This document shows positions 5,345 through 64,000 of a DNA stretch of 64,000 bases, piece by piece. The translations under genes were made by a program, and so were the position numbers. The notes under the pieces are model-generated. The model did no database searches. It was not told the DNA's origin and saw only the letters and a list, made by a program, of their open reading frames with translations. The stretch lies in NCBI GenBank assembly GCA_004431415.1, contig QPMI01000010.1:434001-498000 (forward strand), written 5' to 3'. Positions within the stretch are counted from its first letter, which is position 1. Every line of letters begins with the position of its first letter. This DNA comes from Cyanophora paradoxa CCMP329. Its lineage: Eukaryota > Plantae > Glaucophyta.

Positions 5345-5416
5345 GTCGCTGTAGTATAGCGGTCAGTATACCTGCCTGTCACGCAGGTGACCCGGGTTCA
5401 ATTCCCGGCAGTGGCG
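5345..5416 (+). tRNA. trnD-GUC: tRNA-Asp (GUC)
   Basis: 72-nt cloverleaf: acceptor GTCGCTG/CAGTGGC, anticodon arm CCTGC-CT GTC AC-GCAGG, T-loop GTTCAATTC, followed by a TTTT Pol III terminator. Confidence 0.95.
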
Positions 5417-7459
5417 CTTTTGCCCTCGCCTTACCCCCGGTGCCTGTACCCGGGCGCACTCGCCCGTACCCTCTTTTTCGAAAAGAGGCGCCATTCCACC
5501 CGAACTCCCCCGGGTACGTCACCAGCTACCCGCCCAGCTCCAGCGCTCGTACAGCTGCGGCGCCTGGAGCGCTCGGCACCATCGGCCCCTGCGGTGCACC
5601 GGCTTCATACGCAACTCGGGCTTTCACCTCGACCATTCTGCTACTCTGAGCGGTACGCCATCGTCACCGTTCTCCTTCGCGGTTGCGCATTCAGCTTACA
5701 ATCTTCCCGATCCCTAGATGGCCTTCCTTTTCGAATTCTTCTGGACGCTGCTTTTCGTCTGGGGCAGCACGAGACAGCACTTGCCACGCCTCGGTAGAGA
5801 GCACGCTACACCTATTATGGAACTTGACTTCTTCGTTGGCAAGATGATGCAGTCTGCGGAGAGGGCCGGCAAAATGCGGAACACATTGCCCCACCTCCAG
5901 GCCGCCATCGAGGAGATTCAAGCGGCCAACATGATCCCTGTCGTCTTGTGCATAGTACAGAGTACAGATGTGTATCATAGTACAGATAGCGAATTTTACA
6001 GCTGCATGTGACTACGTGTAAATAAGCATGATAGTTAATTTCTACAATTACAACACTAGCCGATCATGACGACTTGACTGAAGACGCGGGCGCCTCGCCT
6101 CGCCTTGTCGTACATGTTCTCTGTCGACGCCCTCCTTGCTCACGGTTAACGTTCGCCCCGTTGCATGGAGCCTAGGACAATGCGAGCTTTCCGAGCTGAC
6201 CGGAGGGATCTGCGGCGGCGACGCAGGATCGTCAGAAGAACTCAGCGTACGAGCACGTGCACAGGAGCTCGAGATAGGAAACGATGCTTGCTCGGGCAGG
6301 CTCACCCGACTCGAGGATCAGTACATGCCTCGTGTCGCAGCCAACGAGCTGGTAGCCCGAAGGGAACGCGGGCGACGGGAGGGCCAGGAGCAGGCTGCAC
6401 GCGCGCGGGTCACGGGGGCAGATCATCGGACGAAGATCTAGAAATAAGATCTAGAAGAGAACGGCTCACCGGTAGACGTAGCAGTTTCCGTCCTCCGGGC
6501 TGACCCGGTTGATGTAGCCTGTCACGCGCCCATCGGCGGGGACGACGAGGTGGCCGCCCATGCCGCTCTGCTCCGTCACGCCCGCGCACGGAGTCGTGCT
6601 GAGGAGCTCTGGGTCGGACGCACGGGCCTCCTCTGCGCAGCCATTGCATGCACCATGAGATCGAGCTCGAGAGATCCATGGCCAGAGAACACGAGAGAAC
6701 GAACCAATTGACTTCGGGGCGCCGGCGCGCGCGAGGATGTTGCTCGTGCGCTGCGCGAGGACGACCATGTTGCCGGGCAACGACTGTCCAGGCTGGATGG
6801 CCTTGACCTGCGAGGAGAACTCAGCGCCGCGCCAGCGCGCGCAGAGCTAGCGCTACCGCCGAGCGCTAGCTATAGCGCACCGTGAAGCGGAACTGATTGT
6901 TCAGATGCTGGCTCAGGATGACCGTGCTGATATGATGAGCGTCCGCGTAGTCGAACGTCGCTTTCGCCGAACACCAGGCGGTGAACGCGACGGTCGGGTT
7001 GGCGCCCTCTCGCGGCACCCGCACTCTGTCGAGAAGAGCATCGCGAGGCTTTACGGGAGTTGTGTGCGCATTGATGAGCTCTGCCGGGCTGTAGCTGTTC
7101 TCCTTGGTGAGCACGAGCAACGTCCAGTCAAACGTGAACAACTCCATGCCCGTCCGCGGGAGGAAGAAGGCTTTAATGTCTTGCCGTTCAATGCCGCGAG
7201 GAAGTTGCGCGCTCCCTTGCCGCCCAATGCAAATGCGACGGATTCGAATGGCCGAAGCGAATGCTCGCGCGTCGCGGTCCGGCGCGTGCCGAGCTCTCCA
7301 AACGTTGCAGTTGGCTGGAACGAGCAGCCGGGCGATCCGCTGGCGTGCCGGGTGCGCTGGGGCCGAATTCGAAGCGCCGCAGTCAGCTGAGGTTTGACAG
7401 AGCCGGGTACGGGCGAGTGCGCCCGGGTACAGGCACCGGGGGTAAGGCGAGGGCAAAAG

Positions 7460-7531
7460 CGCCACTGCCGGGAATTGAACCCGGGTCACCTGCGTGACAG
7501 GCAGGTATACTGACCGCTATACTACAGCGAC
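7460..7531 (-). tRNA. trnD-GUC: tRNA-Asp (GUC), identical second copy
   Basis: Exact reverse complement of 5345-5416. Confidence 0.95.
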
Positions 7532-30453: not shown

Positions 30454-33400
30454 TCACGCGCGGCGCGCGACGAGCAGAGAGGCGAGAAGCCCGGCAACGG
30501 GGCCCAGAATATTCATTGCGCCGAATTCGATCGACGCCGCGGTCGACAGGGCCGAGGAGCCGCCGGCGGCGGCGGTGTAGGCGCCGAGCTTGAGGGTGCG
30601 GGCGGCCACGGTCGCCTGCACGGCGTCGGCGAGCGCCTTGCCCGTCGCGTAGGCGCCGCCGCCGCCGAACGAGGCGGCGACGAGGAGGCCGCTGCCGGTG
30701 CAGGAGATGCCGGCGATGGCGACCTGCGAGCGCGAGACGGGGCCCTTGAGCGCGTTGACGGCGACGTACAGCGCCCCCTCGACCTGTCGACGTCGTTGTG
30801 AAGAGTAAAGCGTTAATGAAGAAGGTCAGAGTATACGTAAATTAATGCAGCTGTTGTGGATAATTCGCAGCCGCGCCAAATTAAAGGCGCACGTCAAGAA
30901 GGCCGGAGGGGAGGGAGGCCATGTACGACTCGCACTGGGCTTGGGTCGCCTCGAAGCGGATGGAGAGCGCCGCGGGGGTCGCCTGCACGGCCGCCGCCGC
31001 CGCGACGGGCGGCGTGTACGTGAACGTGCCCGGCGCGTACACCTTGACAACCGGGTCCGCGACGCCCGAGGCCTTCGCGCCGTTGACCTGCAGCGGAGAT
31101 TCAAATTCTAAATCATTATCAGAGCGATTGAAACTAAATTTAAGTCTATATTGTGCTCACGGTGACTTGGCCGGCGTTGACGGCCGTCTTGAGCGCCGTG
31201 AAGAGGGCGGAGGAGCCGACGGAGCCGGTCGTGCCGCCGGCGGTGATCTGGTCCCGCACGACGACGCCAAAGGCGCCCGTCGTGGCCAGAAGGCGGCGGG
31301 CGGCCTTGCGCCTGGGCACACAAATGAGAAAAGCATGCGGGAAATTTTGTATACGTAGAGTGTGACTGAGAAATTACACATAGGGATACCCCTGATCCAA
31401 GCCCTCCGGCCTTCGGCCTACAGGCTTGGATCAGGGGTATCCCTATGTGTGCGCGTTTCAGGTACTAGGGTAGTAAGCATTTATTTCAGGTCTTAGGGTA
31501 TTAATCATGTCTTTTTGGCACCAGTATGTTGGCCGCCTCTGGGGTATTGAACACATGAGTTTGGCATCAGCAGGGTGAATGGGGTGAACGGGTTGTTTGT
31601 ATATTTTCTTAGGAAAAATGCCTTCTCACGGGAATTTATACAAACAACCCGTTCACCCCGTTCACCCCGTTCACCCCGTTCACCCAGTTCACCCCGTTCA
31701 CCCTTACACCCTTTACACCCTTTACACCCTTTACACCCTTTACAATCTTAACAATCTTAACAATCCTTAACAACCTTTACAGATGTCTCATCCTGCCCTC
31801 CTCCTTGATCTCGTGGAAATTGCTGGAGCTTCATAGGTCTCCTTTGAATTCGAGAAATCTCTATACCACCTTACTGCCTCTGCTCCCCTGCTAATCTCTC
31901 TGTTCCCGCCACCCTCAATCTCTCCAACTCTCTCCCTTGTTTCTTCTTCTTCCCTGCTCTGTCCTCCAATAATGGTTTATCTGGCACGTTTGGCGCCCTC
32001 TCAATCCCCTCTCTGGCCAAAAGTCGCTCTGTTCTGGCCTCTTTCTTTGCCTCTTCAATGACATTTATTGATGGCGCCTCCAAGAACTCCACGGTTTCCA
32101 CTTTCTGTAATTCGTAGTGGGCATAAAGTCGATCTATTAGTTTGCCAGAAATGTCCCTTAGTTTAAATTTGAACCCCTCCACTCCTTCTATTGTGAATAT
32201 TTCGCGGCTCCAATTATTCCCTTGTTTGGCAAATGGGCTCTTCTCTATTTTAGTTCTCACGTGGCTCCCTGCTGGATAGTCTTTTAGATATTCAATTGAC
32301 TTCATGAATTTCTCGTTTTCTTTTCCGAGTATTAGAGGAACATGTACCTCTGTGGTCTCTGCTGGTTTCATCCCCGTTGCTGAGTGGATGGTATTATTGT
32401 AGTTGTAGGCAAAATCTTGGAGCTTGTCGAAAAACTTTACAGTATTATTCGCTATACAATACGAGTTAATTAGCTTCTTTATTGTGCGATTAAAGGCTTC
32501 TATTCGGCCTTGGCTATTGTGATCTCCAACCTGCGAAACTTGGTGCTCAATCATCTGGGTTTCTAAATGGTCTTTAAATACCTTGTTCAGGAATTCGCTC
32601 CCAGCATCACTTTGTATCTTCACAATTGGACGAGGGACTTGTTGCTCAAGCTCCTTAAACGCGTTCAATGTGCTTTCTGCTGTCTTTCCCCTCATTGGAA
32701 TAATAAAGCCCAGTCTGGTGGTGTTTTCTACAGCTGTGAGGAACGTGTTGTAGCCTTGATTCTGTTTGCTGTATGAGGGAAAGAAGACTAAATCAATAGC
32801 GAATGTATCGAGTGGCTGTCTTATGGGGATATAGGCAGTCTTCTTGGCTGATGGGAGGGGTTTATTTATTTGGTTGATTTCTTGGGCATCATAGAATCTA
32901 CGGATTGTCTTTCTTGGCACATCTGGAAGCTCTTTGGCCAATGAAGCAAGGCCTTTAAATCCTACCTTGGTGTCATAGAATGTCCTTGCTAAGGGATCCA
33001 AGTGGGGCACAGCAATTGCTGTTGGGATGTCTGCTGGAACTAATGCTTTGAGGTCACTCTTTTTCTGAATGCGACCCCCTCTCTCCTCTTGAGGGATTGG
33101 GATTGGCAATATACTCACATCGTACTCTGTTTGTCTGCGTGTGATCTTTGATGACATCTATATTGGGATTAGAAAGCAATCTTTGACATCTTCACATTGA
33201 AGGTCTCATTTTCAAGCTTCTTTTGGACAGTCATTTCGATTTGCTTGGGTTTTTGGTGGAGCACATGGTCTTTATAATCTTGGAAAGACAGATCTGTTTG
33301 AATGGTCTCCTTACAAACACCTGCCAGCTTTTTTATTTCCTCATCATCTGTTTTAATGCTGTAGCATTTCGGCCTTACCCCAGCATATTCAATAATGGTT

Positions 33401-36400
33401 CTGCCCTCAAACTCATCTTTGAACTTGCCAAGCTCTGTGGGGTGGGTGTCAATGTCTTGTAGGTCTTTTGCTATAGTTTTCGAATTTATTTGAAGGCAAA
33501 GCGAATCTGTATCAGTAAAAAGCAGTTTACAGTCTGGCCATTTCCGCTTGATGGTGTTATAATAATAATCAAATAGCCGCAGCTTGGCAAGATCTAAAAC
33601 AACTGCCCCAATTGCTATGGGCTTATCTAACTTGACATTTTTCTGTAGCATTTCGAAGGCTACTGCTGAATCGCTTAGTCTTGTTTCTGCTTTGAGTAGG
33701 GGCGATCTGGCGTATTTCATAAATTGCTTTTCGTTGGTGGCAATCTTGACATTAGACCTTCCTCTCACTTTCTCAATGGTTTTGCCAAAAAGGCTATTGT
33801 TCATGATCTTAAAGAAGTCCTTTTCGGGTTTGGAAGGGGCTGCTTTGCGGTTTTGGGCATTGGATTCGACGTAAGGCTTCATAAAGGCAGCCTGAGTAAA
33901 TGTTAGCACCCTGTGGATTTTGGTGACCTTTAAGCCTTGCGCTACCATGAATTGGAGCAAAGGTTTCGACACCACATAATTACAAATGTCTTCGCAGGCT
34001 GCTTGTAGTCCATCCTCTGCTCTCTTGATAACAAGAGGCAGTTCTTTGTGGAGTTGATGGAGGTGCTGGGGATAATGGATGTCAACTTCTAAGATGGCCC
34101 CCTCTGCTGATGACAGGTCGTAATTTGAGGGTTCTGGGTGCCATTGGAAATTCGAGAGGGGTAGCTTTTGGGATAGGGCATATCCATATAGGTTATTGGC
34201 ATCCAAATATATAATGTGGCTGTCCCTTTCCTTTTTGGCATATTTATGATTCATAATCGAAAGGCCTCCCCTGATCATGCCTTCAACCATGTTGTACATA
34301 TCAAGGTTGGAAAGAAGCTCGATTTTAGGCTTGGTAATAGATAGCATGCTGTCCCACGAAAGCCCTGGACTTGAGACATAGTGGGCAGCATCCATCCCAA
34401 AAGTTTTGTGTGATTTCTGGCGGAAAAGCTGGAACTTTTCCATTAATCCTTCCACGTTCTGGACGCCATAATCAATAAAGTTTTTGATGTCAATGAATTT
34501 AAAGCAACCCCAAGTGATCGACATGTAGTTGTCAAACGATTTTGCGAGGACTTCCACCCTTTTTTCGGGATTTAAGGCGACTGCCTTGAATATCTGCGTT
34601 CCAGATAGGGACAGATCATTGGTCACTATGGGAATCTTGGTGAGATTGCTGGTGCGTCTGTGGAGATTACATTTGCGACAGGCTGAGCCTACAAAATCGC
34701 CTGTTTGATGGTCATGATCCCTCACTTTATAGTTGTCTTGGGAAAACGTACCCTCACAGATGTAGCAGGTTTTAGCAAGGTAATGGGTACGTTTCTGCTC
34801 TTTGGTCAGTGACATTGGGATGTTGGTAAATAGGGCTTTGAATAGCTCTGGGGCTGTGCTGTCGAGGGTACTCAGGAGCTCAAAGATGTTGGAGTGGGTT
34901 TTAGTGAGTACTACTCTATTATTATGAAGAGCTGTCAGTGAGATTGATTTGATCTTGAACATACCAGAAATATCTGTTTCATAATCGAAATAGCAATAGG
35001 CAATCACGGGGAGGAATACAGTCTTTGAGAGATGTTTAAGACCAAATTCAATGAATGTGGGTTGTTTTGGGGTCTCTCCAGCACTTGTCTTCCAATCCAC
35101 ACAACGTTTGCTTTGAATGTGGGATTGAAGCTTCTCCTCAGTCTTGAAGTGGTTGGAACAGGTTTTACAGAAATGGAGTCGCTGCTTATCATTTTTAGCT
35201 AAGACTCTGGACATGCTGAATATTGTGGTATAATGACTGTTACCATTTTCGTCTGTAATTAGCAGCAGATCCACTTGGTGTTTCCTGTTCCTTGAGGAGC
35301 TGTTGTGGAGTAGATTAATTTCTTCTGTAGAGTTAGAGGGGTCGTAAATATTAACAGAGATTGCTGGATTGAGATTTTCAAAGAGATCAATAGTATCAGC
35401 ATCCGCCTTCACAGGAAACTCAATGCCCTCGAAATTTAGTTCTTTTTTGAACCACCTCCTGTATTGGGAAGTCTCATTGCGCTTGTGGCTATTTACTTCG
35501 TCCTTGTGAATATAGCTCAGGATGGAGTATTCAAAGCACCTATTGTCCTTGTTATTAACATTGACAATGGCGCGTTTATTCTTCAGCCACTCAGGCAATG
35601 GAATAAATGCTCCTCCTGAGATTGGCTTAAAGGAGAGAACAATGACCCTGAGGGCTTGGATGCTATCTAATCTGTAGCTATCTGTGACATTAATTTGCGA
35701 CTGGCATTCCTTGGCAAGTTTAGCTGTCTCTTTTGTGAGGATTCGAGATCTTGTCATGATAGCATAGGTGCTGTAAATGTGCTTGGTAATAAAATCTCTC
35801 GAATTATTGGCCTTAGAAAAGCGACAGACAAATGTAAAGCGAGTTTTAATCGACATTTGTGAATTGATGGCATCTTGGAGCCTTGTGTGGAGTTCCTCAG
35901 AGTAGGTGTCTATAAACTCTTGAGTGGTCAGGATCTGGTGCTGAGCTCTGATTGTGAAATCGATGTATTTATTGTTCAGAGCGCGATGTTCATTAATTAG
36001 AGCTGTGTAGTCTTCACCTCTAACCTGTGTGGTCGTGGTCTGTTCGACTTGAATGTGGCCAAGGCGATCAGTCTCATCAAGGGCGTCAATTTTCCCTAAT
36101 AGCTCTCGATTGAGAGCTTGAAGCCCCTTGAGCTTCTTGTTGGTTTGGCTTATGTATGATTCATATTCGCTTTCACTGATGGAGTGGTTCGCAAGGAGGA
36201 AGGCCAGATTCCCGAGAATCTTGTCCTGAAGCTCCTTAATTTGGTAGTGGCTGGGGCGGGGCATGGTTGTGGGGTTGTACTTATATATAGGTACGAAAAT
36301 AATCTTTAAATGCTGCGTAGAATTTGGAAGATTAATTTGTGTGTCTATTGTAGACGAAAAATGGAAACCTTTGATCAGGATTTGGTTGAAACCAAGTTTG

Positions 36401-39400
36401 ACGACGTGGACTCCATGAAATATTTCTACGTTCCACTTGGAGGGGCCAAAGGAAGGGGCCAGTATATGATATGTGATATCGAAGATGCTCCTACAATGAT
36501 GAGATATAACTGGTGTTTGGATGGGGATGGTTATGCTAAGACAAGTGTAAGGCGAGATGAAGGGAAATGGTTGGTATTGTATGCTCATCGATTGATAATG
36601 ACAAATGAACTGAAAGAAGGGTTGGTTGTCGACCATGTGAGCAGAGATAAATTGGACAACAGGAAGTGTAATCTGAGGGTATGCTATCCTTTTGAGAATA
36701 ATAGGAATAGGAGTAAAAGCAGCAATACAAGCAGTCAATATAAAGGTGTTTCTTTCAAGAAACGAGAGGGTAAATGGTGTGCTCAGATTACAATTAATGA
36801 CAAAAGGCTCTCTTTGGGGTATTACAAAAATGAAGCCTTAGCCGCTCATGCCTACAATCAGGCGGCAATTGAACACTATGGAGACTTTGCCGCTCTCAAT
36901 GAGATTAAGCCCGAGGCACAAAATACCGAATAGAATCAGCATTTAAAGAATAAAATCTTACCTATAGTGTAGAGGAACAAGAATTAAAATGGCATACCAT
37001 GCGGCATCTCAAATTGCCTATGTGACTCGTCGCCGTGCTCAAGATCCTGCTTTCCGTGAGAGAATGAAGCTTAATAGTCTGAGGAGCAGATACTACAAAG
37101 GTGACCCCCTTCCCTGTGTGAGGTACCTCTTTGATGAAAGGAGGTGCCTTGTTGGCAGACCAAGGACAGTGGTGTATTGAGGGGGTCGCGAAAAATTGAT
37201 TGTTTTATTTAATGATTCTATAAACTACTTAAGGACAAGGGTGTCAATAGAATCATCAAATTATTTTCTCACCCTATTATAGAATGGCTCCCTCATTCAG
37301 CTCAATCAACCCCAATGGCAACACCTTCATTCTCACTGAGCGCATCCACAGAGGTAACCTCAAATGGGTGGTGGAGAACTTTGATAATCTCCAGTTTCGC
37401 CCTGAAACTGACAAGACCCAAATGAGAGCCATCATCCAGAAATTACTTTCTATCGTCGATCATGAGGGCTACCACACCTGTAAATATAAGCAGGTGAAGC
37501 ACAACACTGGTAGGTACTTTGTGGATGGAAAAACCCCCAGCCTTCAAAGCATCTGTAGGGAAATTCGCCACACCATTTCCAAGGACTACTACTATGACAT
37601 TGACATTGTGAACTGCCACCCTGTCCTGCTTGTTCAGTATTGTGAGAAACATTCAATTGCCACTCCTCAGCTGAACAAATATGTTCAGAGCAGGGATGAA
37701 ATTCTTGATGATCTCTGTGAGGTCACCCAGAAATCCAAGGCTGATGTCAAGCGCAGCATTCTGGCAGTCATCAATGGTGGGCAAGGGGCTGACCTCTCTA
37801 GCCTACTTATCAATCACAAGTACTTCAGTGATCTCAAAGAGGAAATGGCCAAAGTCCATCAATTCATTGGTGGGATTGAGAAGCAGCGCTTCTATGCTAT
37901 TGCTAAGCGCAAGAAAGAAAGCAATGTACTTGGTTCCACCATGAATATGGTACTATGTGACCTTGAGAATCAGGTGTTAATGGCTGCTTGTGAGTACTTC
38001 AGTGCTCTTAAGCTCCATGTGGATGTCTTGGTCTTTGATGGATGTATGATCAGGAAAGACCCCAAAGTATTGAGTGCTTTGGAAGAGGTTAGTGATTATG
38101 TGGAGGGGAAAACTGGCTACAGGGTGACTTTTGTGGAAAAACCTATGACCAGTGGGTTTGATGTACCTGAATGTCAAGCTTCCCTTTCCAACATTGATTA
38201 CAAGACTGCTCCAATTCCTACCAACTGTGATTACATGGAGATCAAGCCCTACATGGATGCCAGACTTGCTCACATTATGAAGCCTGGGTTTGTCTTGTCT
38301 TGGAATGATCATACCAAGAAGTATGACACAACCAGCTTCAAAAGCTTGGCTGAGGATGTATACCCTCACATTCAGTACACAGAGTTTGACCTAATGTCTA
38401 TGAAGATGGAGCCTCATAACTTCATCAAAAAGTGGGCGAAAGATGAGACTGCCACAAGGTATGATTACTTGGACTTCCTCCCACCTCCTGTAAAATCTGC
38501 TTCCACCACTGCCAAGGTGTTTAATGCCTATGCTGGTATGAAAGGTGAGCTTATGGATGTGAGTGAAATGGATATTCCTCCTGATGTAACTGAGGAAGAT
38601 GTTAGCCCATTCCTTGACCACATGATGATTCTCAGTGGTGAAGATGCTTCTACATTCAATTACATACTGAAGTACTTTGCCCACATTATTCAGAGACCTG
38701 GGGAGTTGAATGGGATTTCAATCATCTTCAAGGGAAAGCAAGGAGTGGGGAAGAACATCATATTGGATTGGTTTCAAAATGAAATACTGGGTGGGGACTT
38801 GGCTTTCAGCACAGCCAACCCACTGAAGGACTTATTTGGAAACTTTGCCCACCAGCGAAAGCACAAACTACTTATCACTGTGAATGAGGCAAGTGGCAAA
38901 GACACCTTCACAAACAGTGATGCCCTCAAGGACATGATCACTGCTGAGAAAATTGTAATTGAGGCTAAGTATGTCAATTCTCATGAGGTGAGGAATTTCG
39001 CCAGGATCATATTTACTACCAACAACACCCTACCAATCAAAGTGGAGGCTGGAGATAGAAGGTTTGTGATTGTGGAGGTGAGTGACAAGAAAAAGGGTGA
39101 CATGAAATATTTCAAGGCACTGGGTAATTGGCTGAAGGAGCCAAGAAACCAGCACATGGTATTCCTCTACTTGAAAAACAAGGTGGATGTCACAGACGTG
39201 AACTGGTATGCTGACAGGCCAATGACCAACAGCTACTACCTTGCCCAACAAGCAAGTGTTCCTGTCACTGCCTTGTTCACCAAGGATTTGGTAGACACCC
39301 AAAAGATTACCAAGGATACACCAAGGACTGAGAACAGGCAACAGGTGTGGGAGTGGTTCCAGCAGTTCATTACAATTAATAAATTCAAGAATGAATTCAG

Positions 39401-42400
39401 CTCAAGGAAGTTCTACATTGAGATGGCTGGACTGGAATATGTGAGGCCTACCAAGTATTGTGGAAGGGAGTGTTATGTCTTCAAGTGGGATGAGATGATG
39501 GCTTACTTCAAGAGCTGTGGGCTGTTGGTGGAGTTTTTGGAAGAGGAGGAGGATTAGGGGGGGCTCATGATAGGTTTTTGGGGGGGGTTCAAGACGTCTG
39601 GGGGACCTTCTGGGGGACCTTCATTTTTTACTTTCTGGTTGTTTTATGACCAGAAATGGTAATAATGTATACACATAGGGGGGTTAGGGGACCTAGGGGG
39701 GGATATATAACTCCTATAGCCTCCAACTCTTTTTCATTTTTAAGCAACAAGCCAGAAATATATAGAGTTGTGAGAGAATACCCCCCTACCCACCCAACAA
39801 CCCCCTAATCCCCCCTAGCCCCCACCTTCCAGACTGAGAATGGTAACCTAAACAACAAGACGTCAGTTGGCAGAACCCCCCCCTAACTTCCCCTTGAGTC
39901 CCCTAACCCCCCCAAATCTACCCCACTTGCTTGTAGGCCACCAGCACTTAAGGACATCTTCATATAGCATGGTGAAGAGCCCAAGCCCCCAAGTGCCCAC
40001 CAAAAATTGATTCTTGACACCCCCAACCCCCCAAACAGTCTTACATAAGCCCACCAGTACCACCATGGACTCAGATAGCAGCTATGATGACATCCCCCTT
40101 GAGGACATGGTTGAACTGTGGGAGGCAGTCAGGCAGCAGTATTATGATGAGTATAGGAAGTCCCCCCAAGACATCAACCCCCAGACCTGTAAAGAATTGC
40201 GCAGATTGATGAAGGCATATGAGAACATCATATGTGATAACTATGGCATGGAGGGGTATGCCCTACTCCACAAAGCAAATTTTAGCTGGAGAAAGTCATG
40301 AAAATTGTAAGTACCCCATCTCAAAATCTCCGATTCATCCCTTGAAAATATCACCGTTGGATTCCTCGTAAAAAGTAGATATTTATAGACCCCAATATCA
40401 TAGCCCTAAGATGATCTGGTGACGAGCTACGAATATTTTCAGGTTCGCATATACCATATATATATACCATAATGATATATGTATATGATATATCATAATG
40501 TCACATGACATATATATATATCATAGCTTTTCGGACTCGCCGCGTCATGGCGATCACGGCGCTATAGGTTTTACCGAAACTTGTTTTTTTTTATATATAT
40601 AATATACATATATGAGCCGGCCTACCGTTGACCAGTATACGTAGTCACGCCAGCCAGCCTACCGTAGACCAGTAGGCACGCCAGCCAGCCTACCGTAGAC
40701 CAGTAGGCACGCCAGCCAGCCTACCGTAGACCAGTAGGCACGCCAGCCAGCCTACCGTAGACCAGTAGGCACGCCAGCCAGCCTACCGTAGACCAGTAGG
40801 CACGCCAGCCGGCCTACCGTAGACCAGTAGGCAAGCCCGCCAGCCTACCAGAGAGCGGTAGGCGCTTATTTCCTTATAGAACTCTATAAGAACATTTATA
40901 TTCCATTTAATTGGAGCCACCTAAGAAGCTCATATAATTAAATCGTATAAGACCATATAAGATTTTGGATAAGATTTATATAATCTATTACACTTCTATG
41001 TGAGCGACAATAAGGAGTCTAATAAGGATGGGTTAAATGTGGCGACTCTTGAAAGATTTCTTATAAGAACCTTATAGAGATTGCGCGGCGCAATCTAGAA
41101 GTTGCGCACAGTATGGGCTGCGCAAGCCTGAGATTGCTCCTTGTATGGCCGCGCAACGCTGAGATTGCTCCTTGTATGGCCGCGCAACGCTGAGATTGCT
41201 CCTTGTATGGCCGCGCAACGCTGAGATTGCGCAGCTATTTCCTTATAGAGCTCTATAAGAATGTTTCTAAAACTTTCAATTAGAGCCACTTAAGGAACTT
41301 CAAACGCGAATATCTCGGCACCAGATTGGCCGTTTTGAGCGCTCTTTTTTTTCCTGTGAAGCTCTCATCACGCTCTACGCAGAGCCGCCCCTTTCGCATT
41401 TTTATGCTGCCTAAAAGTAGATTATTATGACAACTCCCATCCATACTCGCCTTGTAGAGGTCTCCTTTGAACTCTCATATTTGGCGCTGACGTCTCCAAG
41501 CTCAGAACTGAGTAACTCCATACATCGCCTCTCTATAGAACTGTACAACCTTGGTCATCGAATAGCCCCCCTGTCTCCACATATCAAAGCAGCTTTACAA
41601 AAAATATCAAACGACCTTCTAATGCTTGGAAACGAGATAAATACCCTCCCTGATGGCAGATAATGTGCTCAATGTAGACGGTTTCCTTGGTACTCATCCC
41701 AAGCGCTGCTTACAGCCTGAGCAAATTGCTCCCCTGTCACCTCTTCAATACTCTCCAAGCTTACCCTTTGCCCCTCAGTTGACCCTGTCCTCAGCACCAC
41801 ATCATAGGGAGACCCACTCCTGGATCCACTTGGGGAGGAAGATCCAATGCTGACGTCAATAGTAGTATCACAACAGCTACATTTATAATTGCTGGTCACA
41901 TGTATATGAAACATATCCAGCAATTGTTGGAGCCATTGCCACATCTTACAAGTAACAGGACAAAATAACTCAGTTGCTGCTCTCAGTGGTTAAAAAGTAT
42001 TTAGCCGGCCTCCCCATTGGCCTCACCACTTCTTTTTGTGCCCTTCGGCGATAATATGATGCCAAGGCTTGTTGTTTCTTAACCTCTCTATATGCTGGGT
42101 CTTCCCTGTATCTTTTTTGGTTTGCTAAAGCGCTCTTAATATAACTCTCACTTACAGGACTATCAACGGTGAACTCAACCAGACTGATGGTATCATCCAT
42201 TTATAATAGAAAAAACGTTTATTTTTTCTCAAAGCCAAACCCGTCGTTTATACACTGTGGGGGCTACGCCTTTGTCCACCTCTGCCTTTGTAGCACCTGG
42301 CTCAATAGTCCCCTTTTGGGTCTTTGTTTTCATTTCATCAACAGCTTGCTCATCGATTTGGGTCTCTTTCTTGGCAATAAACTGTTTATCTGGAATCCCA

Positions 42401-45400
42401 GTTATCCCCATTTTGAACACCTCCTTTCTAAGCATCTCCTTGAGTTTGGACCTCTCTCTCTTCTCAGTTACATACTGCTCCAAAGCACTTGACTTGGCTT
42501 CCAGATCTTTAAGCTTGGCAGTCATTTCGTCCCATTGAGCCTTGGGAACTCTATGAATATTCTGGGTGGGAGCAGTCTTGTATGTGACTTCACCCGCCAT
42601 AGACTGGATAACCTTGTCGGATTCTTTACTGAGACCCTCACCTTTGCGAGTGAGTGATAGATCTTGGAGCCCAAGACCTTTATCATCAGCAGCACCTATA
42701 ATTCGCCTGGCACCCTCACCCACAGCCTTCATTTTAGAAGCTTCAGGGGAGATGTTGAGCTGATCACTGGTGGACGTCTGTGGGGCTTTGTCATCAAAAG
42801 ATTCCTCATAGGCGGCATTAAGGGGATCCTCTTGCTGTTGTGAGGGCTTAACCTCATTCATTCCATTGAATTTAAGCGGGTCTGTGTTAATGGAGCCATT
42901 GTTACCACCACCTGAATACCCAACAGCCCCAGCAGGGATGCCTATTTTCCGTTTGGGGGGCATTGTGTCTTTATTAAAGTGAGAGATATTTTTATAGACC
43001 GCGTTTATATCGCATTAACTTACTACTATGAACTTGGCTTTTCACTTCTTTGCGCCCCTCTTCTTTCTCTGGTGGTTTAAGCTCATCTTCTTTCTTCTTT
43101 GGCTTCCTGTGGAACCGTGGAAATGGGAAATCTTTGACCAAATCCGCTTTATCTACGAAATATTTCACAGAATAATCTGCGGATGACCAAATTAGGAACT
43201 GGTAGGAATGTACGTACTCTTCAAACATTTTATAGAAAACATCTTTGTCCCGCATTATATTGTATTCTTCCTCAATGGCTTCAAGCTCCTTTCTATTGGC
43301 AGCGCTGAGGAACATAGCATAATCTGAGTTGACGCGAATGGTCGATGAGACTTTCCTTAGCTTTTGTGTGATACAGATAATAGATATTTTCGAATGTCTA
43401 CCACGACTGTAAAGACTTCCGATTATTTTATCTCGGGTCAAATCTACTATTTCGTTGTCAATAAGGTCGTCCAAAACAACACATAATTGGTTAACAGGTT
43501 CCCCTTTTTCTATTTTCTCTTGCCTTTCATCCAGCAATTTAGCAATGTAAGGGGCGTCCCATTTCCCCAATTGTAATGTGGCCACCTTATCCCAGAAATG
43601 ATTAAAGCTTGTTCCACTCACCACCAAAACGACATCAATCTTTTTGGCATCATGAAGCTGCTTGAGCCAGTACTTTACAGCCTCTGATTTACCAGTAGCA
43701 GATTTGCCAATTGCCAAAACGCGGAAAGGGGGATTTATCATCTCACCAGCATTAAATTCGTCCAAGTCGCCCATGCTTCCTTCTATAAAGAACCAGATAA
43801 AAATAATACGATGTGACTGAATATGGTTTATAGATTGATTCGCCTCAAGCCGTCCTTGTCCACAATAATGAAACTATGCATGAGAGCGCGAACATTGACA
43901 TCAATTGCCTTGTCAGTGGGCATGTAGAGAGTGAGGAATGAAGATGAAGAATTGGTCAGGTCAACATAGCCAGACTGGGCAACATTGCGAATAGCCTTCT
44001 CACCATCAAGACAGAATGGCAGCCCTGAAAGAACATAGCGATCAGCAACCTTATCCATGTTAGAGCATTTGAAGACATCAGCAATCAGCTCAGCACCCTT
44101 GAGCAGTGGAATGGGCTCAGTGGCATAGAGACGTTGACCATTAATTTCCACAGTGAAAGTAATATCTTTGGAGTTGGAGTAGGTCTTAAGTACACTGTGG
44201 GAACCATTAGCTTTGTCAACATTAGCGTTATCACGAACTGAAACAAGCAGAGCATAAACGAGACCTGATATTTGGGAGAGGTTAACTCGATTGGGTTGGG
44301 CAAGACCCTTGGCTTTCATATCACTGACATCCACAAATCCAATATCCAGAGCAGGGATAGCCATGCCAGTTGTCTTTACCTTCTCAATAACAGTAGCGAA
44401 AAGCTCATCAGACACATTAACAGCATACATATAAAGGCGAGGAGAAGTAATTTTAATTTCAACGTTTGGCGCACCAAGATTGAAAGTGGTGATGTTTTGG
44501 CCAACATGTGCCAGCACAGATTCAGCAGGTGCGACGCCAAGCCCATCATCCTTGTCCCCATCAATGGCTGTGTCCCCAGCCTTAGGAAGAGTACGACCAC
44601 CATAAGAAGTCTCAACATAACCCTTCCCTACATCCTTGAACCAAACAGTTACTACCATTTCACCAGACAGAGCACCAAGAGGTAGGTAGTGGTTTAGCCA
44701 AGGCACAGGAATTTCAACAAAGAATGAGCCACCAAGTCGGTTGGTTCCATGGGCGGGGATGCCGTGAAGCATGCCCATTGATCGCTTCTTTTTGGCAAGC
44801 TGATCCTCACTATAATAGACAAGAGGGAAATGAGCAAGGAAATCAGAAGGGATATGGTAGGTGTATGACCCATAGGTAATTTCAAGTCGCTGAACCAAAG
44901 CACCAACTGGGCGAGTATACCCATTTCGAACAAGATCAGCATCACCAAAAGTGATAGCTGGAAGGTCGAAGGCAAGTTCGAGTTTGCCACAGAAATTGTA
45001 GCGAGGGAGTTTGAATGAAATGCGATTTCCAACACTATTTTCAAAAGTATTGCTCGGGTTCACAACAACAAGAACGGGCTTCGACTTGGATTCAAGACCA
45101 AGCATTAGGGAGTTATCCAGAAAGAAGGCCTTGGCCTCCTCTGGGGTTGTTAGGGCTTCTTTCAACGAAAGGCGCTGGAGGGTCGACGTAATATCCATGA
45201 TTTTCTCTTTTATTATACTGTAACATAAAAAAATTACGAATGAACCTTGTGTTTACCCAAAACTCGCAATGATTGGATATGTTGGATGACTTTGTGACAT
45301 CCGCATCTTAAAGTATTCATAGACAGGGTCGCCTGCTGGCTCCTCCCCATATCGAATTTCAAATGTGAGGTGGACAGGTTGACCCTCAAAATCGATTGGT

Positions 45401-48400
45401 TCGTTTATAGCATTTACTATATCCACAGAGAATGTAGACAAACCCATTTTTTTGTTATAGTACTTGTAAAGTGGGTGAGATTCTGTTGAATTGTAAACCA
45501 CATGCTCACCGTAGTCCTTGTCAGGAACTACTATTTTATGGAAGTAACCAGTCAGGAGACCATCCCCACACTGAACCAGATCACCCAACTCTTTTACTCT
45601 GACAAATAAAACACTGTCCCTGGTCTTTTCAGGCTCAAACGAAGATATAATACCATTCACCCGTTCACCAGTAAAGATGCCATCAGTAAGAGCATTATAA
45701 ACCTGTGATTGGATTGGGGAATTTCCATATCTTCCGGGATCAAGACCAAGCAATCGGGCAGCGCTCAGTAACTTTTGGATCGTTTTCTGGTTTGGATTTC
45801 CAGCAACAGAGAAGGCTAGATAGAAAGGTTTCTCTGAGTGGAATATAATTCGTTTTAGTGACTCATCCCATTTACAGCGAATAGATGGTTCCGGCTCTCT
45901 ATCATCGAATTTCGCATTAATTACATTTACCAATTGCTGGTGGCTTTGAATGGGTTTTTTGCGGCTTATTATTAATTGCTTCCAAGGTTCAAAGCCGGCC
46001 GCTGGTCGAGTAGTTGGAATGCCATCAATGCCAGCACCATCGAATTCTTCACTCCAAAAAATGCTGAATGAATTATCAATTGTAATATCCCCTGGTTGCG
46101 TTTCACCACTCACCATAGGGATACTATTATAAAATTCGGCCGAGACCAGCCTGACAGCCCTCACATTCTCATATATGTTTGGAAGTCGAGCTATAAAGCT
46201 TGAAGTAGGACCGTCACCAGAGATTGTATTAAAAGAGCTCACCTCAATGTAGTCCACGGGCATTCTCCTTTTATCTATATTCATATATTAAAATGAACCG
46301 GCTTGTCAATGTTGATAGCAGGGATCGCAGCCAAGGTGAAACCGAAAACTCTTACAGGGTTGCCCTCACAACACCAGTAGAGAGACCTCGAGAGTGTAGG
46401 GTTATTTACGCAGAAATTCCAAACAGCATTTACAATAGTGTGGGAACAGATCATTTAATAGTGGAATTCACCTATCAGGATAGTTCTGTCACTGAAACAG
46501 TAACTTACAACATTTCCCCCCTGCCAACCGGTTATATCAATCAGGGACATTTTGGGGTCACCCAACCATACAACTATGGATTGAACTATGTGTTCTATGA
46601 GGAAACTATAGCAGGAAAAACAGTTGCTTTCGAATTCAAATTATTTTACAATCCAACCACTTATAAAGTGGAGTTCTACAGTAACAGATTTTTCCGTATA
46701 AGAGCAAGCAATAAGCGTATTGGTAAGCTTCTGGGGTTAAGCTCAACTGAGTTCCAGTCTTCATTTATGGATGACAATTCGCCCTCTCAATCTCCATATC
46801 GCCCTGAGAATTTTCTAAAGTATGATGGCAAACCTATCACACTCAATCACCCCTTGTGGGGAACTACCTTTTCGGGATCCAGACTTTCATCCACACCTCT
46901 TAGATATGTTTATTACAGCAATAAGATGGCAGACATGAACGCTGAGCAGTACCTTTATTTACATGTCAAAGAACTTGCTCCCTTTGCCAGCAGACATAAT
47001 ATAGTCCCAAAATCACAGCCACAAAACCAAGGCGCCATACTGAGACTCCAATTAAGCAAGGATATAGGAGGCTATGTTTACTATAATGGTGAACATGGGG
47101 AGTTTATTCGAATTAATGACCGACATCTGGTGGTGAGAGAACTAACAGTTGAGTTCAAAGACTACTTTGGTGACATCATTGACATGAATGGAATTGACAA
47201 TTCTTTTCAGCTCGAGTTTATCGAATAAACGCACCTGTAAAATCGACTCTCATTGTGGGAGCATTCACATAGACAAGGGGATAAATGCGAACATATTTGA
47301 TTCTCAAAGAGAACCCTACGTAGAAAGCATCCTTGATGGTGAGAGGGTAACCATTTAATAAAGCTATATCGCCGGAATTATTAGCATTGTTTATATTCTC
47401 ACAAACAAATGTTTTGTTCTGCCCTTCTGCTCGAATAAAAGACCAGTTGATCCCATTAGTTGATGTAGCCACATTGAAAGTCTTTATAAAAGCATTGGTG
47501 TCCCCTGACCCATAGGCAACCACTGAAGAGAGTTCAAAAGTGTATGGGAAAGCAACTTGAAGGTACTCAGTGGGGGTCTCCCATATCTGCTCTGGAGCAA
47601 ATGCCCCAGCTTCCCAGCCAAATGATGAAGGTCGAGCCATGTGGGGCTCTTTACCTATCACAGAGGAGGAGGCAGTAAAAGCATCATCAGCAAGTTTGTA
47701 CCAATTAGCATCCAAAGGTGGTGACAGGGTGAGAGTGGAAGAGATATAAGCTTTTGATGGGTTCTTTAATTCATAGTTTGCTACCAGCAAATCGCAAAGC
47801 TTATTAATCATGGTGTTGTTTGCTGCTATGTATGTCTCAGTGAACGAAAGCATGTCGGGGATTTTAGAGGTATCATCAAGGGACTTGACTATGTGATTTG
47901 GAAGAGGAACAGATAGCCTATAGTACCTCCCATAATCCTGATCGTAGTTGTAAGGCAGCAACTCCTCCATCTTGTCAAGAGCTGACAGCTCACTTGCTGC
48001 CATGAGCATGTTAATCAATGGGCTTCCATCTGTTGAGGCAATCCATGAGAGAATGCCCAACTGTTCACAGTCTCATAACCATAGCCGAAATAATCAGACT
48101 CTAAATATGGGTCTACCTCACCACAAGAGATGCTTATAACTATAATGTCATCATCATCACTGTAAATCTTCCTCGCATGGCTATAGCCACACACACTTGG
48201 GTTATTGTTTCCTGAAATAGCACCATCAATAAGGCAAGCAGTTACCCCTCGATTAAAATCAACTATACTCACAGGAGAAAAGTAGGTGGGAGCAGCAGAG
48301 GTAGCCCTTGCTGCTATTTTACAGGGCAGAAAGTTATAGTTGTTATCATTTGTGATAAATATAGGTTTCATGTACTGAGTATCAAACGAAGTAATCACAA

Positions 48401-62788: not shown

Positions 62789-62951
62789 GCTAGGCACTGC
62801 GGAATCCGGATCCCGCCGGAGCCGGAATTCGGAATCCGGATTCCGGATCCGCAATGACCTAACGGGCCAGTAGTAACGGCTTGCGAAACAAAAACGAAGC
62901 GACACAGGGGGCGAGAAAGAAAAAAAAGCGGAATCCAGTTGGCGAAAAGAA

Positions 62952-63024
62952 CGATCCCGGCGGGACTTGAACCCGCAATCTCTAGCTCCGGAGGCTAGCG
63001 CCTTATCCATTTGGCCACAGGACC
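62952..63024 (-). tRNA. trnR-CCG: tRNA-Arg (CCG)
   Basis: GGTCCTGTGGCCAAATGGATAAGGCGCTAGCCTCCGGAGCTAGAGATTGCGGGTTCAAGTCCCGCCGGGATCG; anticodon arm CTAGC-CT CCG GA-GCTAG; downstream T-runs. Confidence 0.93.
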
Positions 63025-64000
63025 GATGAAAGGGCTCGTCGACCTGGTCTGCTGGATGGTTCAATGTGCGCTGAGGGTCGGGGGGTTCTTGTGTGCCGGG
63101 GGTACTTCGGGCTGGTCAGCGAAGGCGCTCACACCACATCACATCGATATCACCGATCCGGCGGCGCGCAGCGACGGGGCATTGCGCGGCCAGCATCTAG
63201 CAGCGGCCCCTCTAGATCTAGATCTAGAATTAGATCTCGCCCCGCGGGCGCTCGCTCGCGGTAAGCTAGCTGATCGAAGCTTAAGCTGCGTGTCAGCCAC
63301 GGCCTCGCATCGACTAGACGCTGCCGCCGATGCCGATATCGATGCCCTGGGGTGCTTTGGCCGGCTGCCGCGCGCCCTCGCGCGCCCCGGGCTGACGCGG
63401 CGAGGGCGCGCACTGCCGCAGTGCGCGTTCAGGTACGGCAACAGCGGCGCCGACACTACAGGCGGGCGGGCGCCAGCGTGCGGCGTGGGGCAAAGCGCTG
63501 TGCGTGCTCGAGGACGGTCCACGTGTACATGCACAGGCGCTCGTTCCCTTCCGCTCCACCGCTCTGCGCCTCCGCACGGGGCGGCGCCTCCAGCCTCGTC
63601 AGCCTCCTATAGCTAGCGCTGCGGCCGCGTCCCCCAAGCCCGGGTCCGGCCTCGCCGGTGCCCCGCGCGGCCGAGCTGCGCATGCGGGCGCGGCCTGCGC
63701 CGGCGAGCTGCACCCGCACCAGCCGCCGGCCCGCAGCTCCGTCGAAGGGAGGGGCCGGGCGGCCGGCGGCGCCGGCGGCGCCAGTGGCGCCGGCCTCGCG
63801 GCGGGCGGTCGGCCGCGCCCCGCGCCCCATGCATATGCCGAGCGCGAGCTCCAGCGCATCGAGAAGGTCCGCCCGCGGCCCGCCGGCTCCTTCCCACGTC
63901 CCGCCGCTCACGCCGCTCACGCATGGGCGCAGGAGGCGCTCTGGGCCTACTCCAAGGACCTGAAGGAGGGCGTGGAAACCGGGGCGCCCGACGCCGCGCG

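Follow-up and report, generated by a model that had tools for sequence, protein, structure and literature searches.

A 64,000-nucleotide window of the Cyanophora paradoxa CCMP329 genome (contig QPMI01000010.1, positions 434,001 to 498,000; coordinates below count from the first letter of this window) contains an integrated Polinton-like virus (PLV) that encodes both a Polinton-type protein-primed DNA polymerase (pPolB) and a D5-like helicase, and each end of this element is formed by a 75-nt palindrome. These terminal palindromes are a real structure, far beyond what chance would produce, and their significance is well supported. Tentatively, we read them as the functional ends of an open-ended linear duplex, a combined replication and integration signal that likely folds back during replication. 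This reading partly supports an initial annotation made from the sequence alone, which had proposed that the free genome uses fold-back self-priming or hairpin resolution as well as, or instead of, protein priming. The ends of the element are made up of the following features.

31376 to 31450, unstranded: left terminal 75-nt palindrome, a 28-bp stem with the loop CTCC-GGCC-TTC-GGCC-TACA on the plus strand.
58599 to 58673, unstranded: right terminal 75-nt palindrome, with the loop TGTA-GGCC-GAA-GGCC-GGAG on the plus strand.
31370 to 31375, unstranded: left copy of the 6-bp target-site duplication (TSD) GAAATT, by direct reading.
58674 to 58679, unstranded: right copy of the 6-bp TSD GAAATT, by direct reading.
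31376 to 31524, unstranded: left terminal inverted repeat (TIR), 149 nt, whose first 83 nt match the right end fully.
58525 to 58673, unstranded: right TIR, 149 nt.

Direct reading of positions 31376-31450 gave ACACATAGGGATACCCCTGATCCAAGCC / CTCCGGCCTTCGGCCTACA / GGCTTGGATCAGGGGTATCCCTATGTGT, and positions 58599-58673 are the exact reverse complement of this sequence. The stem of each 75-mer is paired at 28/28 bp around a loop of 19 nt, the core of which is GGCC-TTC-GGCC on one strand and GGCC-GAA-GGCC on the opposite strand, and the termini of the element read 5'-ACACA...TGTGT-3'. At both element ends, the GGCC-GAA-GGCC form sits on the strand that has its 3' end at the terminus. When folded as single-stranded DNA, the 75-mers reached -37.3 and -38.0 kcal/mol compared with a shuffle mean of about -10 (z = -11.9 and -11.2), with none of 200 shuffles being as stable, and the GGCC/GGCC mini-hairpin was part of the minimum-energy structure on both strands. 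Triloops of the d(GNA) type closed by C:G are described as unusually stable (PMC13037366, PMC3201870). Thus, the architecture given in the initial annotation (perfect 28-bp stem, 19-nt loop, GGCC-GAA-GGCC mini-hairpin and ACACA...TGTGT termini) was borne out by direct reading, and the terminal 75-mers proved to fold very stably. The structure is also rare. Across the whole 64 kb, the two terminal 75-mers are the only perfect stems of at least 14 bp with loops of up to 30 nt. The 28-nt arm occurs five times in the window when up to 3 mismatches are allowed, every copy being exact, and 0 copies are expected by chance (0/100 shuffles).

The element spans positions 31376-58673 (27.3 kb) and has a G+C content of 42%, compared with ~68% for the host; per kilobase, this fraction is 0.38-0.47 across the island and 0.58-0.76 in the flanks. 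The 75-nt palindromes constitute the outer half of 149-nt TIRs that are 95% identical, and both palindromes directly abut the GAAATT duplication. The earlier claim that the 75-mers are the ends of an integrated Polinton-like element is upheld by their position at the TIR tips, the low-GC island, the TSD and the presence of an integrase. The four terminal arms match one another at 28/28 positions, although the neighboring TIR has diverged. Every one of the TIR mismatches (n = 8) falls at offsets 84-141, such that the left and right ends have 0 differences in the outer 83 nt and 8 in the following 66 nt. At the rate of the inner TIR, ~10 differences would be expected in 83 nt, and by our arithmetic the probability of observing none is ~2e-5. 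We conclude that the ends are under sequence constraint.

Because the full duplex palindrome adjoins the target duplication, the integrating DNA appears to have had open ends, with a 3'-OH after TGTGT; the integrating form would accordingly have been an open-ended duplex rather than a molecule with closed hairpins. In favor of a combined replication and integration signal, the genes that adjoin the left end encode an integrase, pPolB and the D5-like helicase.

31871 to 33157, minus strand: rve-type integrase, 428 aa (Pfam rve, PHROG transposase).
33169 to 36636, minus strand: pPolB open reading frame (ORF), 1155 aa (motifs, relatives).
34663 to 34812, minus strand: Endonuclease VII-like insert (HNH, beta-beta-alpha-metal) in the polymerase, CxxC..DHDH..CxxCN (Pfam Endonuclease_7).
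37284 to 39557, plus strand: D5-like superfamily-3 helicase, probably a primase-helicase, 757 aa (Pfam DUF5906 7e-20, VapE-like 3e-8).

The Pfam scan covered 16 ORFs of the element, and 6 further small or partial ORFs were scanned additionally. The integrase matched Pfam rve with an E value of 9.9e-6 (26.2 bits, under the 32.6 cut-off) and PHROG transposase with an E value of 1.2e-12. Its residues D122, D184 and E220 were invariant in a 4-sequence alignment, and its relatives carry PF00665. In the pPolB ORF, the motifs YLDANNLYG, NSLFGK and TDTDS could be read by eye, and 15,739 relatives were found at E <=1e-3. A Pfam DNA_pol_B_2 match was present in 5/25 aligned pPolB relatives (best 3e-29); the element's own polymerase protein fell below this Pfam model, and a PDB profile search with it returned no match. 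The Endonuclease VII-like insert matched Pfam Endonuclease_7 (E 3.1e-5, 24.2 bits versus a 23.6 cut-off) and, weakly, Hpy99I, and it is present in 17 of the 25 aligned polymerase relatives. For the N-terminal half of the D5-like helicase, an atlas lead pointed to clusters with D5_N in 36-38% of their members.

Based on these features, we propose the following cycle. The free genome would be an open-ended linear duplex, and the rve integrase would act on the 3'-OH that follows ...TGTGT. Because a full-length pPolB ORF is present, terminal-protein priming on a reiterated 3'-TGTGT template is the default expectation from the family, and the 5'-ACACA reiteration would allow such priming by the element's pPolB with slide-back. 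The 3' end of the displaced strand could then snap back locally into the 28-bp hairpin, with the C(GAA)G mini-hairpin stabilizing the fold; this snap-back would either restore a duplex end for new priming or turn the 3'-OH into a primer for the complementary strand. Copying from one arm to another in this way would keep the four arms identical. Once in the chromosome, the palindrome would render the end prone to strand switching or cruciform cutting, and one such event may have left the scar described below. The part of the initial annotation in which fold-back operates instead of protein priming is unlikely, since the element retains a full-length Polinton-type pPolB ORF with polymerase motifs.

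A second palindrome is found ~120 nt further inward at each end, with arms made of tandem 9-nt units.

31573 to 31667, unstranded: left subterminal imperfect palindrome, 9-nt units CCCGTTCAC around an AT-rich core (fold z -8.6).
58404 to 58523, unstranded: right subterminal imperfect palindrome, other 9-nt units ACCCTCAAC around the shared core (fold z -11.6).
58004 to 58402, plus strand: S-adenosylmethionine decarboxylase (AdoMetDC)-like ORF, the last gene before the right end (Pfam AdoMet_dc 1e-11).

While the 9-nt units differ between the two ends (CCCGTTCAC vs ACCCTCAAC), the AT-rich core is common to both and the fold is retained. That the fold persists although the units differ suggests that self-complementarity is maintained near the termini. 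No comparable hairpins were found elsewhere in the element when inverted repeats with arms of at least 11 nt and a spacing of up to 40 nt were considered. The right subterminal palindrome begins 2 nt past the stop codon of the AdoMetDC-like ORF. These subterminal palindromes could serve as an iteron-type origin for the D5-like helicase or as a transcript 3'-end signal.

The terminal palindromes could instead be protein-binding sites only, with two inverted 28-bp sites for a dimeric integrase or a terminal-protein/polymerase complex and no fold-back at all. The arms occupy the very positions at which an rve integrase has to bind, the gene for the integrase comes first when reading in from the left end, and the outer 83 nt are conserved between the ends; furthermore, pPolB replicons generally need no hairpins. 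However, half-sites usually tolerate mismatches, yet the arms match at 28/28 positions at both ends. In addition, the 4-bp mini-hairpin with its GAA triloop has no obvious role in duplex binding, and the nearby second palindrome retains its fold despite the change in sequence. Taken together, we consider a binding role alone somewhat unlikely.

The fifth copy of the arm provided information of a different kind, as it lies 1 kb inside the element within what appears to be a repair scar.

57548 to 57651, plus strand: repair scar, 104 nt, composed of inverted host flank, arm and TGTAG.
57046 to 57958, plus strand: conserved gene of unknown function that is split by the scar, in frame 1 to 57546 and in frame 2 from 57653.

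The first part of the scar (57548-57618, 71 nt) matches the right host flank at 58674-58744 exactly, in reverse complement, the second (57619-57646) is the 28-nt arm, and the third, TGTAG, is the start of the loop in flipped orientation. Two homologues of the broken gene (278 and 274 aa) cover both of its halves, with ~14 codons missing at the break. Since the homologues span both halves and ~14 codons were lost, we infer that a deletion was mended with DNA copied from the right junction close by. When read from the host inward, the real junction runs flank-arm-CTCCGG..., while the scar runs flank-arm-TGTAG; a match of 4-5 nt to the loop start would occur by chance in about 1 in 256 to 1 in 1024 cases. 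This order of inverted flank, arm and flipped loop start indicates that DNA continuity switched strands inside the palindrome at least once.

Two routes to the scar can be envisaged. A polymerase could have copied the flank and the arm and then switched strands within the palindrome, or an extruded cruciform could have been cut at its base to give a hairpin-capped host end, which was opened 5 nt into the loop and captured. Both routes give exactly the same scar strand. Neither scar join shows visible microhomology, which mildly favors fragment capture. It is possible that the scar is an assembly error, but a 104-nt insert with normal sequence on either side and ~14 codons replaced would be unlike a fold-back chimera. 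We rejected a scar made by the integrase, whether through auto-integration or duplicative inversion, because its arm-host junction duplicates the one already present and both new joins lie away from the tips of the element.

Parvovirus-type ends are expected to occur with flip and flop loop orientations, and the initial annotation had suggested scoring loop orientation relative to the host flank. The copy in the scar is indeed flipped beside the same host flank. The two true ends, however, share one loop orientation relative to the outside, and a strand switch explains the scar equally well. The scar also creates a perfect 99-nt inverted repeat (57548-57646 and 58646-58744, 999 nt apart) that encloses most of the right terminus together with the AdoMetDC-like gene. 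The 100% identity of this repeat suggests that the event was recent, and the repeat could permit inversion of the 1-kb segment.

A scar of this kind would also be consistent with closed hairpin telomeres of the poxvirus, African swine fever virus (ASFV) or chlorovirus type, in which a nuclease would cut the junction cruciform to yield a hairpin-capped viral genome and hairpin-capped host ends. The scar strand is exactly that expected in the host-side hairpin product of right-end cruciform resolution, and its joins without visible microhomology fit the capture of a fragment. Moreover, the pPolB contains a putative Endonuclease VII-like domain, as judged from its CxxC..DHDH..CxxCN pattern, and a D5-like helicase is present, as in hairpin-ended poxviruses. 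However, a polymerase strand switch yields an identical scar, and the Endonuclease VII-like insert is common in the polymerase family (17/25), most fetched members of which lack a terminal palindrome. The whole palindrome next to the TSD points to open ends at integration, whereas a closed hairpin would offer the rve integrase no 3'-OH. Finally, no RuvC-like or telomere resolvase was found in the Pfam scan of 16 ORFs. We therefore regard closed telomeres as clearly unlikely. A hybrid scheme, which we consider slightly less probable still, would make the junction palindrome a built-in excision site: the cruciform would be cut by the polymerase's Endonuclease VII-like domain to release a hairpin-capped genome, hairpin and protein priming would be combined, and the scar would be a captured host-side hairpin.

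We also asked whether relatives of the element have similar ends. The exact 28-nt arm and a degenerate palindrome-core pattern each gave 0 matches in IMG/VR, and a scan of metagenomes with a two-sequence pPolB alignment returned no relatives. Polymerase, integrase and capsid proteins that are 50-58% identical would stem from the closest sister elements. From IMG/VR, we retrieved 30 pPolB loci (27-43% identity, mostly incomplete), scanned them for perfect stems of at least 13 bp and folded both 90-nt ends of each. Only 3/60 ends had z < -4. One of these, in L003, is not a contig end, and a second, in L019, is of low complexity and reached a z of only -1.8 on 120 nt. The third belongs to L011, a 5.6-kb contig with a 34% identical polymerase, in which positions 1-120, near the contig start, hold two direct repeats of a 16-nt perfect palindrome (z -7.8). 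A 69-nt palindrome in L014 is internal, between convergent ORFs. The search for inverted repeats covered 7 of these 30 loci, each a whole contig, with 4 other whole-contig loci lying outside it. The integrase had relatives at 2 IMG/VR loci (29-30% identity), where hairpins were restricted to AT-rich intergenic DNA in a giant-virus contig. Since the fetched pPolB loci lack comparable ends, the terminal palindrome does not accompany this polymerase family in general, and conservation of the palindrome in relatives, which the initial annotation had treated as a check on its proposal, was not seen in these 30 + 2 distant pPolB and integrase loci.

This restricted distribution bears on whether the palindrome is a functionless by-product, namely a one-off accident of snap-back synthesis or repair that was copied to the other end via the TIRs and tolerated. 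The palindrome is not general in the pPolB family, the scar at this locus indicates that repair can copy palindrome-containing DNA, and accidental annealing is named as an alternative for palindromes of this kind in a recent preprint (bioRxiv 10.64898/2026.07.28.741278). Nevertheless, both ends are perfect while the adjoining TIR differs at 8/66 positions, and the structured loop and the second, structure-conserving palindrome argue for selection. The same preprint reports terminal palindromes in several unrelated endogenous virus lineages (bioRxiv 10.64898/2026.07.28.741278), which speaks against a single accident. We thus view a functionless origin as improbable.

A role in RNA, in which the hairpins would mark transcript 3' ends or act as terminators for the two terminal genes that face outward, appears very improbable. 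Both the integrase and the AdoMetDC-like gene are transcribed toward their nearest terminus, the subterminal palindrome follows the AdoMetDC stop codon by 2 nt, and giant viruses have hairpin-defined mRNA ends. However, no comparable hairpin follows any other gene of the element, and the 75-mer lies at the extreme tip against the TSD, ~200 nt beyond the subterminal palindrome, to which the idea is better suited. Least credible of all is that the 75-mer, which has two inverted integrase-type ends, is a foldback mini-transposon in its own right, which would be mobilized by the integrase and would occupy both ends by chance, as the 64-kb window contains no solo copies of the kind the initial annotation had envisaged, both copies lie within longer TIRs exactly at the element-host boundary with one shared TSD, and two independent insertions at both tips would be very unlikely.

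Several observations weigh against our preferred reading of the palindromes as fold-back ends of an open-ended, protein-primed duplex. Adenovirus, phi29 and other replicons with a pPolB are not known to require a palindrome at their ends. The preprint associates terminal palindromes preferentially with elements that lack pPolB (bioRxiv 10.64898/2026.07.28.741278). No comparable terminal palindrome was found in the 30 pPolB and 2 integrase loci from IMG/VR, which are distant and mostly incomplete, and in L022 (41% identity), the sole locus among the 7 searched with TIRs at both contig ends, the ends do not fold (z 0.1 and 0.3). The identity of the outer 83 nt could reflect selection for protein binding alone, or a young palindrome, and host repair without any viral function could explain the scar. 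The provirus is partly decayed, with one broken gene and an ORF-poor 2-kb region at 39558-41668. Lastly, the evidence comes from a single element in its integrated form.

Polintons have 5'-AG...CT-3' termini and a 6-bp TSD. The Cyanophora element resembles Polintons/Mavericks in its pPolB, rve integrase, A32-type ATPase, probable capsid gene, TIRs and 6-bp TSD, but differs from them in its ACACA...TGTGT rather than AG...CT ends, the lack of a maturation protease family in the Pfam scan of 16 ORFs, its size of 27.3 kb, TIRs of only 149 nt and its terminal palindromes. Like parvoviruses, it has a terminal palindrome with an asymmetric center that exists as a duplex in extended form and, from the folding of the 75-mers, can fold so that an extendable 3'-OH is paired. 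In contrast with parvoviruses, its genome is double-stranded and 27 kb long and encodes a pPolB, and no HUH Rep/NS1 nickase was found among the Pfam matches of the 16 ORFs and the 6 small or partial ORFs, several of which had no match. The telomeres of poxviruses, ASFV and chloroviruses share with it an incompletely paired hairpin, two possible loop orientations, a D5-like helicase and a duplex palindrome that may be a substrate for resolution. The integrated form described here implies open ends, however, with no RuvC-like resolvase found and a perfect stem in place of extrahelical bases.

Among systems with a terminal protein, the closest working analogue is provided by Streptomyces telomeres, which are described as protein-capped, with a 3' strand that folds into palindromes with G:A-sheared triloops bound by the priming machinery (PMC4513846). 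Terminal-protein priming and 3'-strand terminal hairpins thus coexist there, and a corresponding 3'-strand fold-back hairpin with a purine-sheared C(GAA)G triloop is predicted from the sequence at both ends of the Cyanophora element. The Streptomyces system, as described, differs in being bacterial, in patching its ends with Tap/Tpg after internal initiation, in having several packed palindromes and in using another kind of polymerase. No Pfam match in the element points to Tap/Tpg-type proteins, although no search was aimed at them.

Terminal palindromes in related endogenous viruses were already reported in 2026, and part of our interpretation has been put forward before. A preprint of July 2026 on Halocafeteria seosinensis describes terminal palindromes within TIRs, next to TSDs, in four virophage subtypes and one PLV subtype, and proposes hairpin-primed replication with accidental annealing as an alternative (bioRxiv 10.64898/2026.07.28.741278). 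The Cyanophora element belongs to the same broad virus group and shares the placement of the palindrome inside the TIR beside the TSD. However, the example shown for Halocafeteria is 52 nt long, compared with 75 nt and an inner mini-hairpin here, and the palindromes there are described as occurring preferentially in elements without pPolB, whereas the present element, whose host is far richer in G+C, combines pPolB with a D5-like helicase. The pairing of pPolB with a D5-like helicase is mentioned in the preprint for some virophages (bioRxiv 10.64898/2026.07.28.741278). Neither "hairpin" nor "palindrom" occurs in the main text of the 2021 paper on Cafeteria EMALEs (PMC8547959), and titles and abstracts retrieved in our literature search described neither this element nor palindromic ends on a pPolB-encoding Polinton.

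The remaining genes of the element for which we obtained matches or leads are as follows.

36310 to 36933, plus strand: HNH-AP2 endonuclease-like ORF, 207 aa (Pfam HNH_3 8.2e-7, AP2 4.5e-8).
42992 to 43774, minus strand: A32-type packaging ATPase (Pfam Pox_A32 8e-11).
43828 to 45198, minus strand: probable major capsid protein, 456 aa (beside the ATPase; atlas lead).
48015 to 48773, minus strand: patatin-like phospholipase gene (Pfam).

For the capsid candidate, the atlas lead (score 0.98) pointed to clusters with Capsid_N or Capsid_NCLDV in 12-18% of their members; the protein had no Pfam match, and its structure model was unusable (predicted local distance difference test score of 33). Among 5.8 billion clusters, the candidate had only one homologue, with 58% identity, from a EukProt record of Cyanophora paradoxa itself. 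No capsid relatives were found in IMG/VR, and the metagenomes yielded one 1.36-kb contig that was too short to use. The AdoMetDC-like and patatin-like phospholipase genes are unusual cargo for a PLV. At 52392-56141 on the plus strand, a 1249-aa ORF contains tandem repeats of 39 and 78 nt that stay in frame (53128-53737) and weakly matches Laminin_G_3; it may encode a fibre or adhesin-like virion protein. The region at 39558-41668 comprises ~2 kb without an ATG-initiated ORF of at least 100 aa (the longest is 95 aa). It contains AT-rich, microsatellite-like DNA and two arrays of 31-nt tandem repeats, at 40641-40863 (7.2 copies) and 41111-41230 (3.8 copies), and it may be a decayed or regulatory region.

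On the host side, the insertion site is a stretch of ~100 nt of AT-rich DNA (31280-31375 and 58674-58720) between GC-rich, coding-like segments on the minus strand, and possible GT...CAG boundaries suggest that the element was inserted into a host intron. Elsewhere in the window, two tRNA-Asp(GTC) genes, at 5345-5417 on the plus strand and 7459-7531 on the minus strand, lie in a 133-nt inverted repeat that is 99% identical and separated by 1.9 kb, and a tRNA-Arg(CCG) gene is located at 62951-63025.

What is new here is the occurrence of perfect terminal hairpins in an element that encodes a pPolB, the GAA mini-hairpin nested in the loop of the strands that end 3', the second palindrome that conserves structure, and the loop-flipped scar. 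The scar is a rare sequence-level record of strand switching in vivo at such an end, and the element supplies short, defined test substrates in the form of the 28-bp arm, the 75-mer and the 6-bp target. If our reading of the palindromes as fold-back ends of a protein-primed duplex is true, this virus group includes replicons that combine protein priming with fold-back ends, as is the case for Streptomyces telomeres, and the idea that terminal palindromes mark only replicons without pPolB would be weakened.

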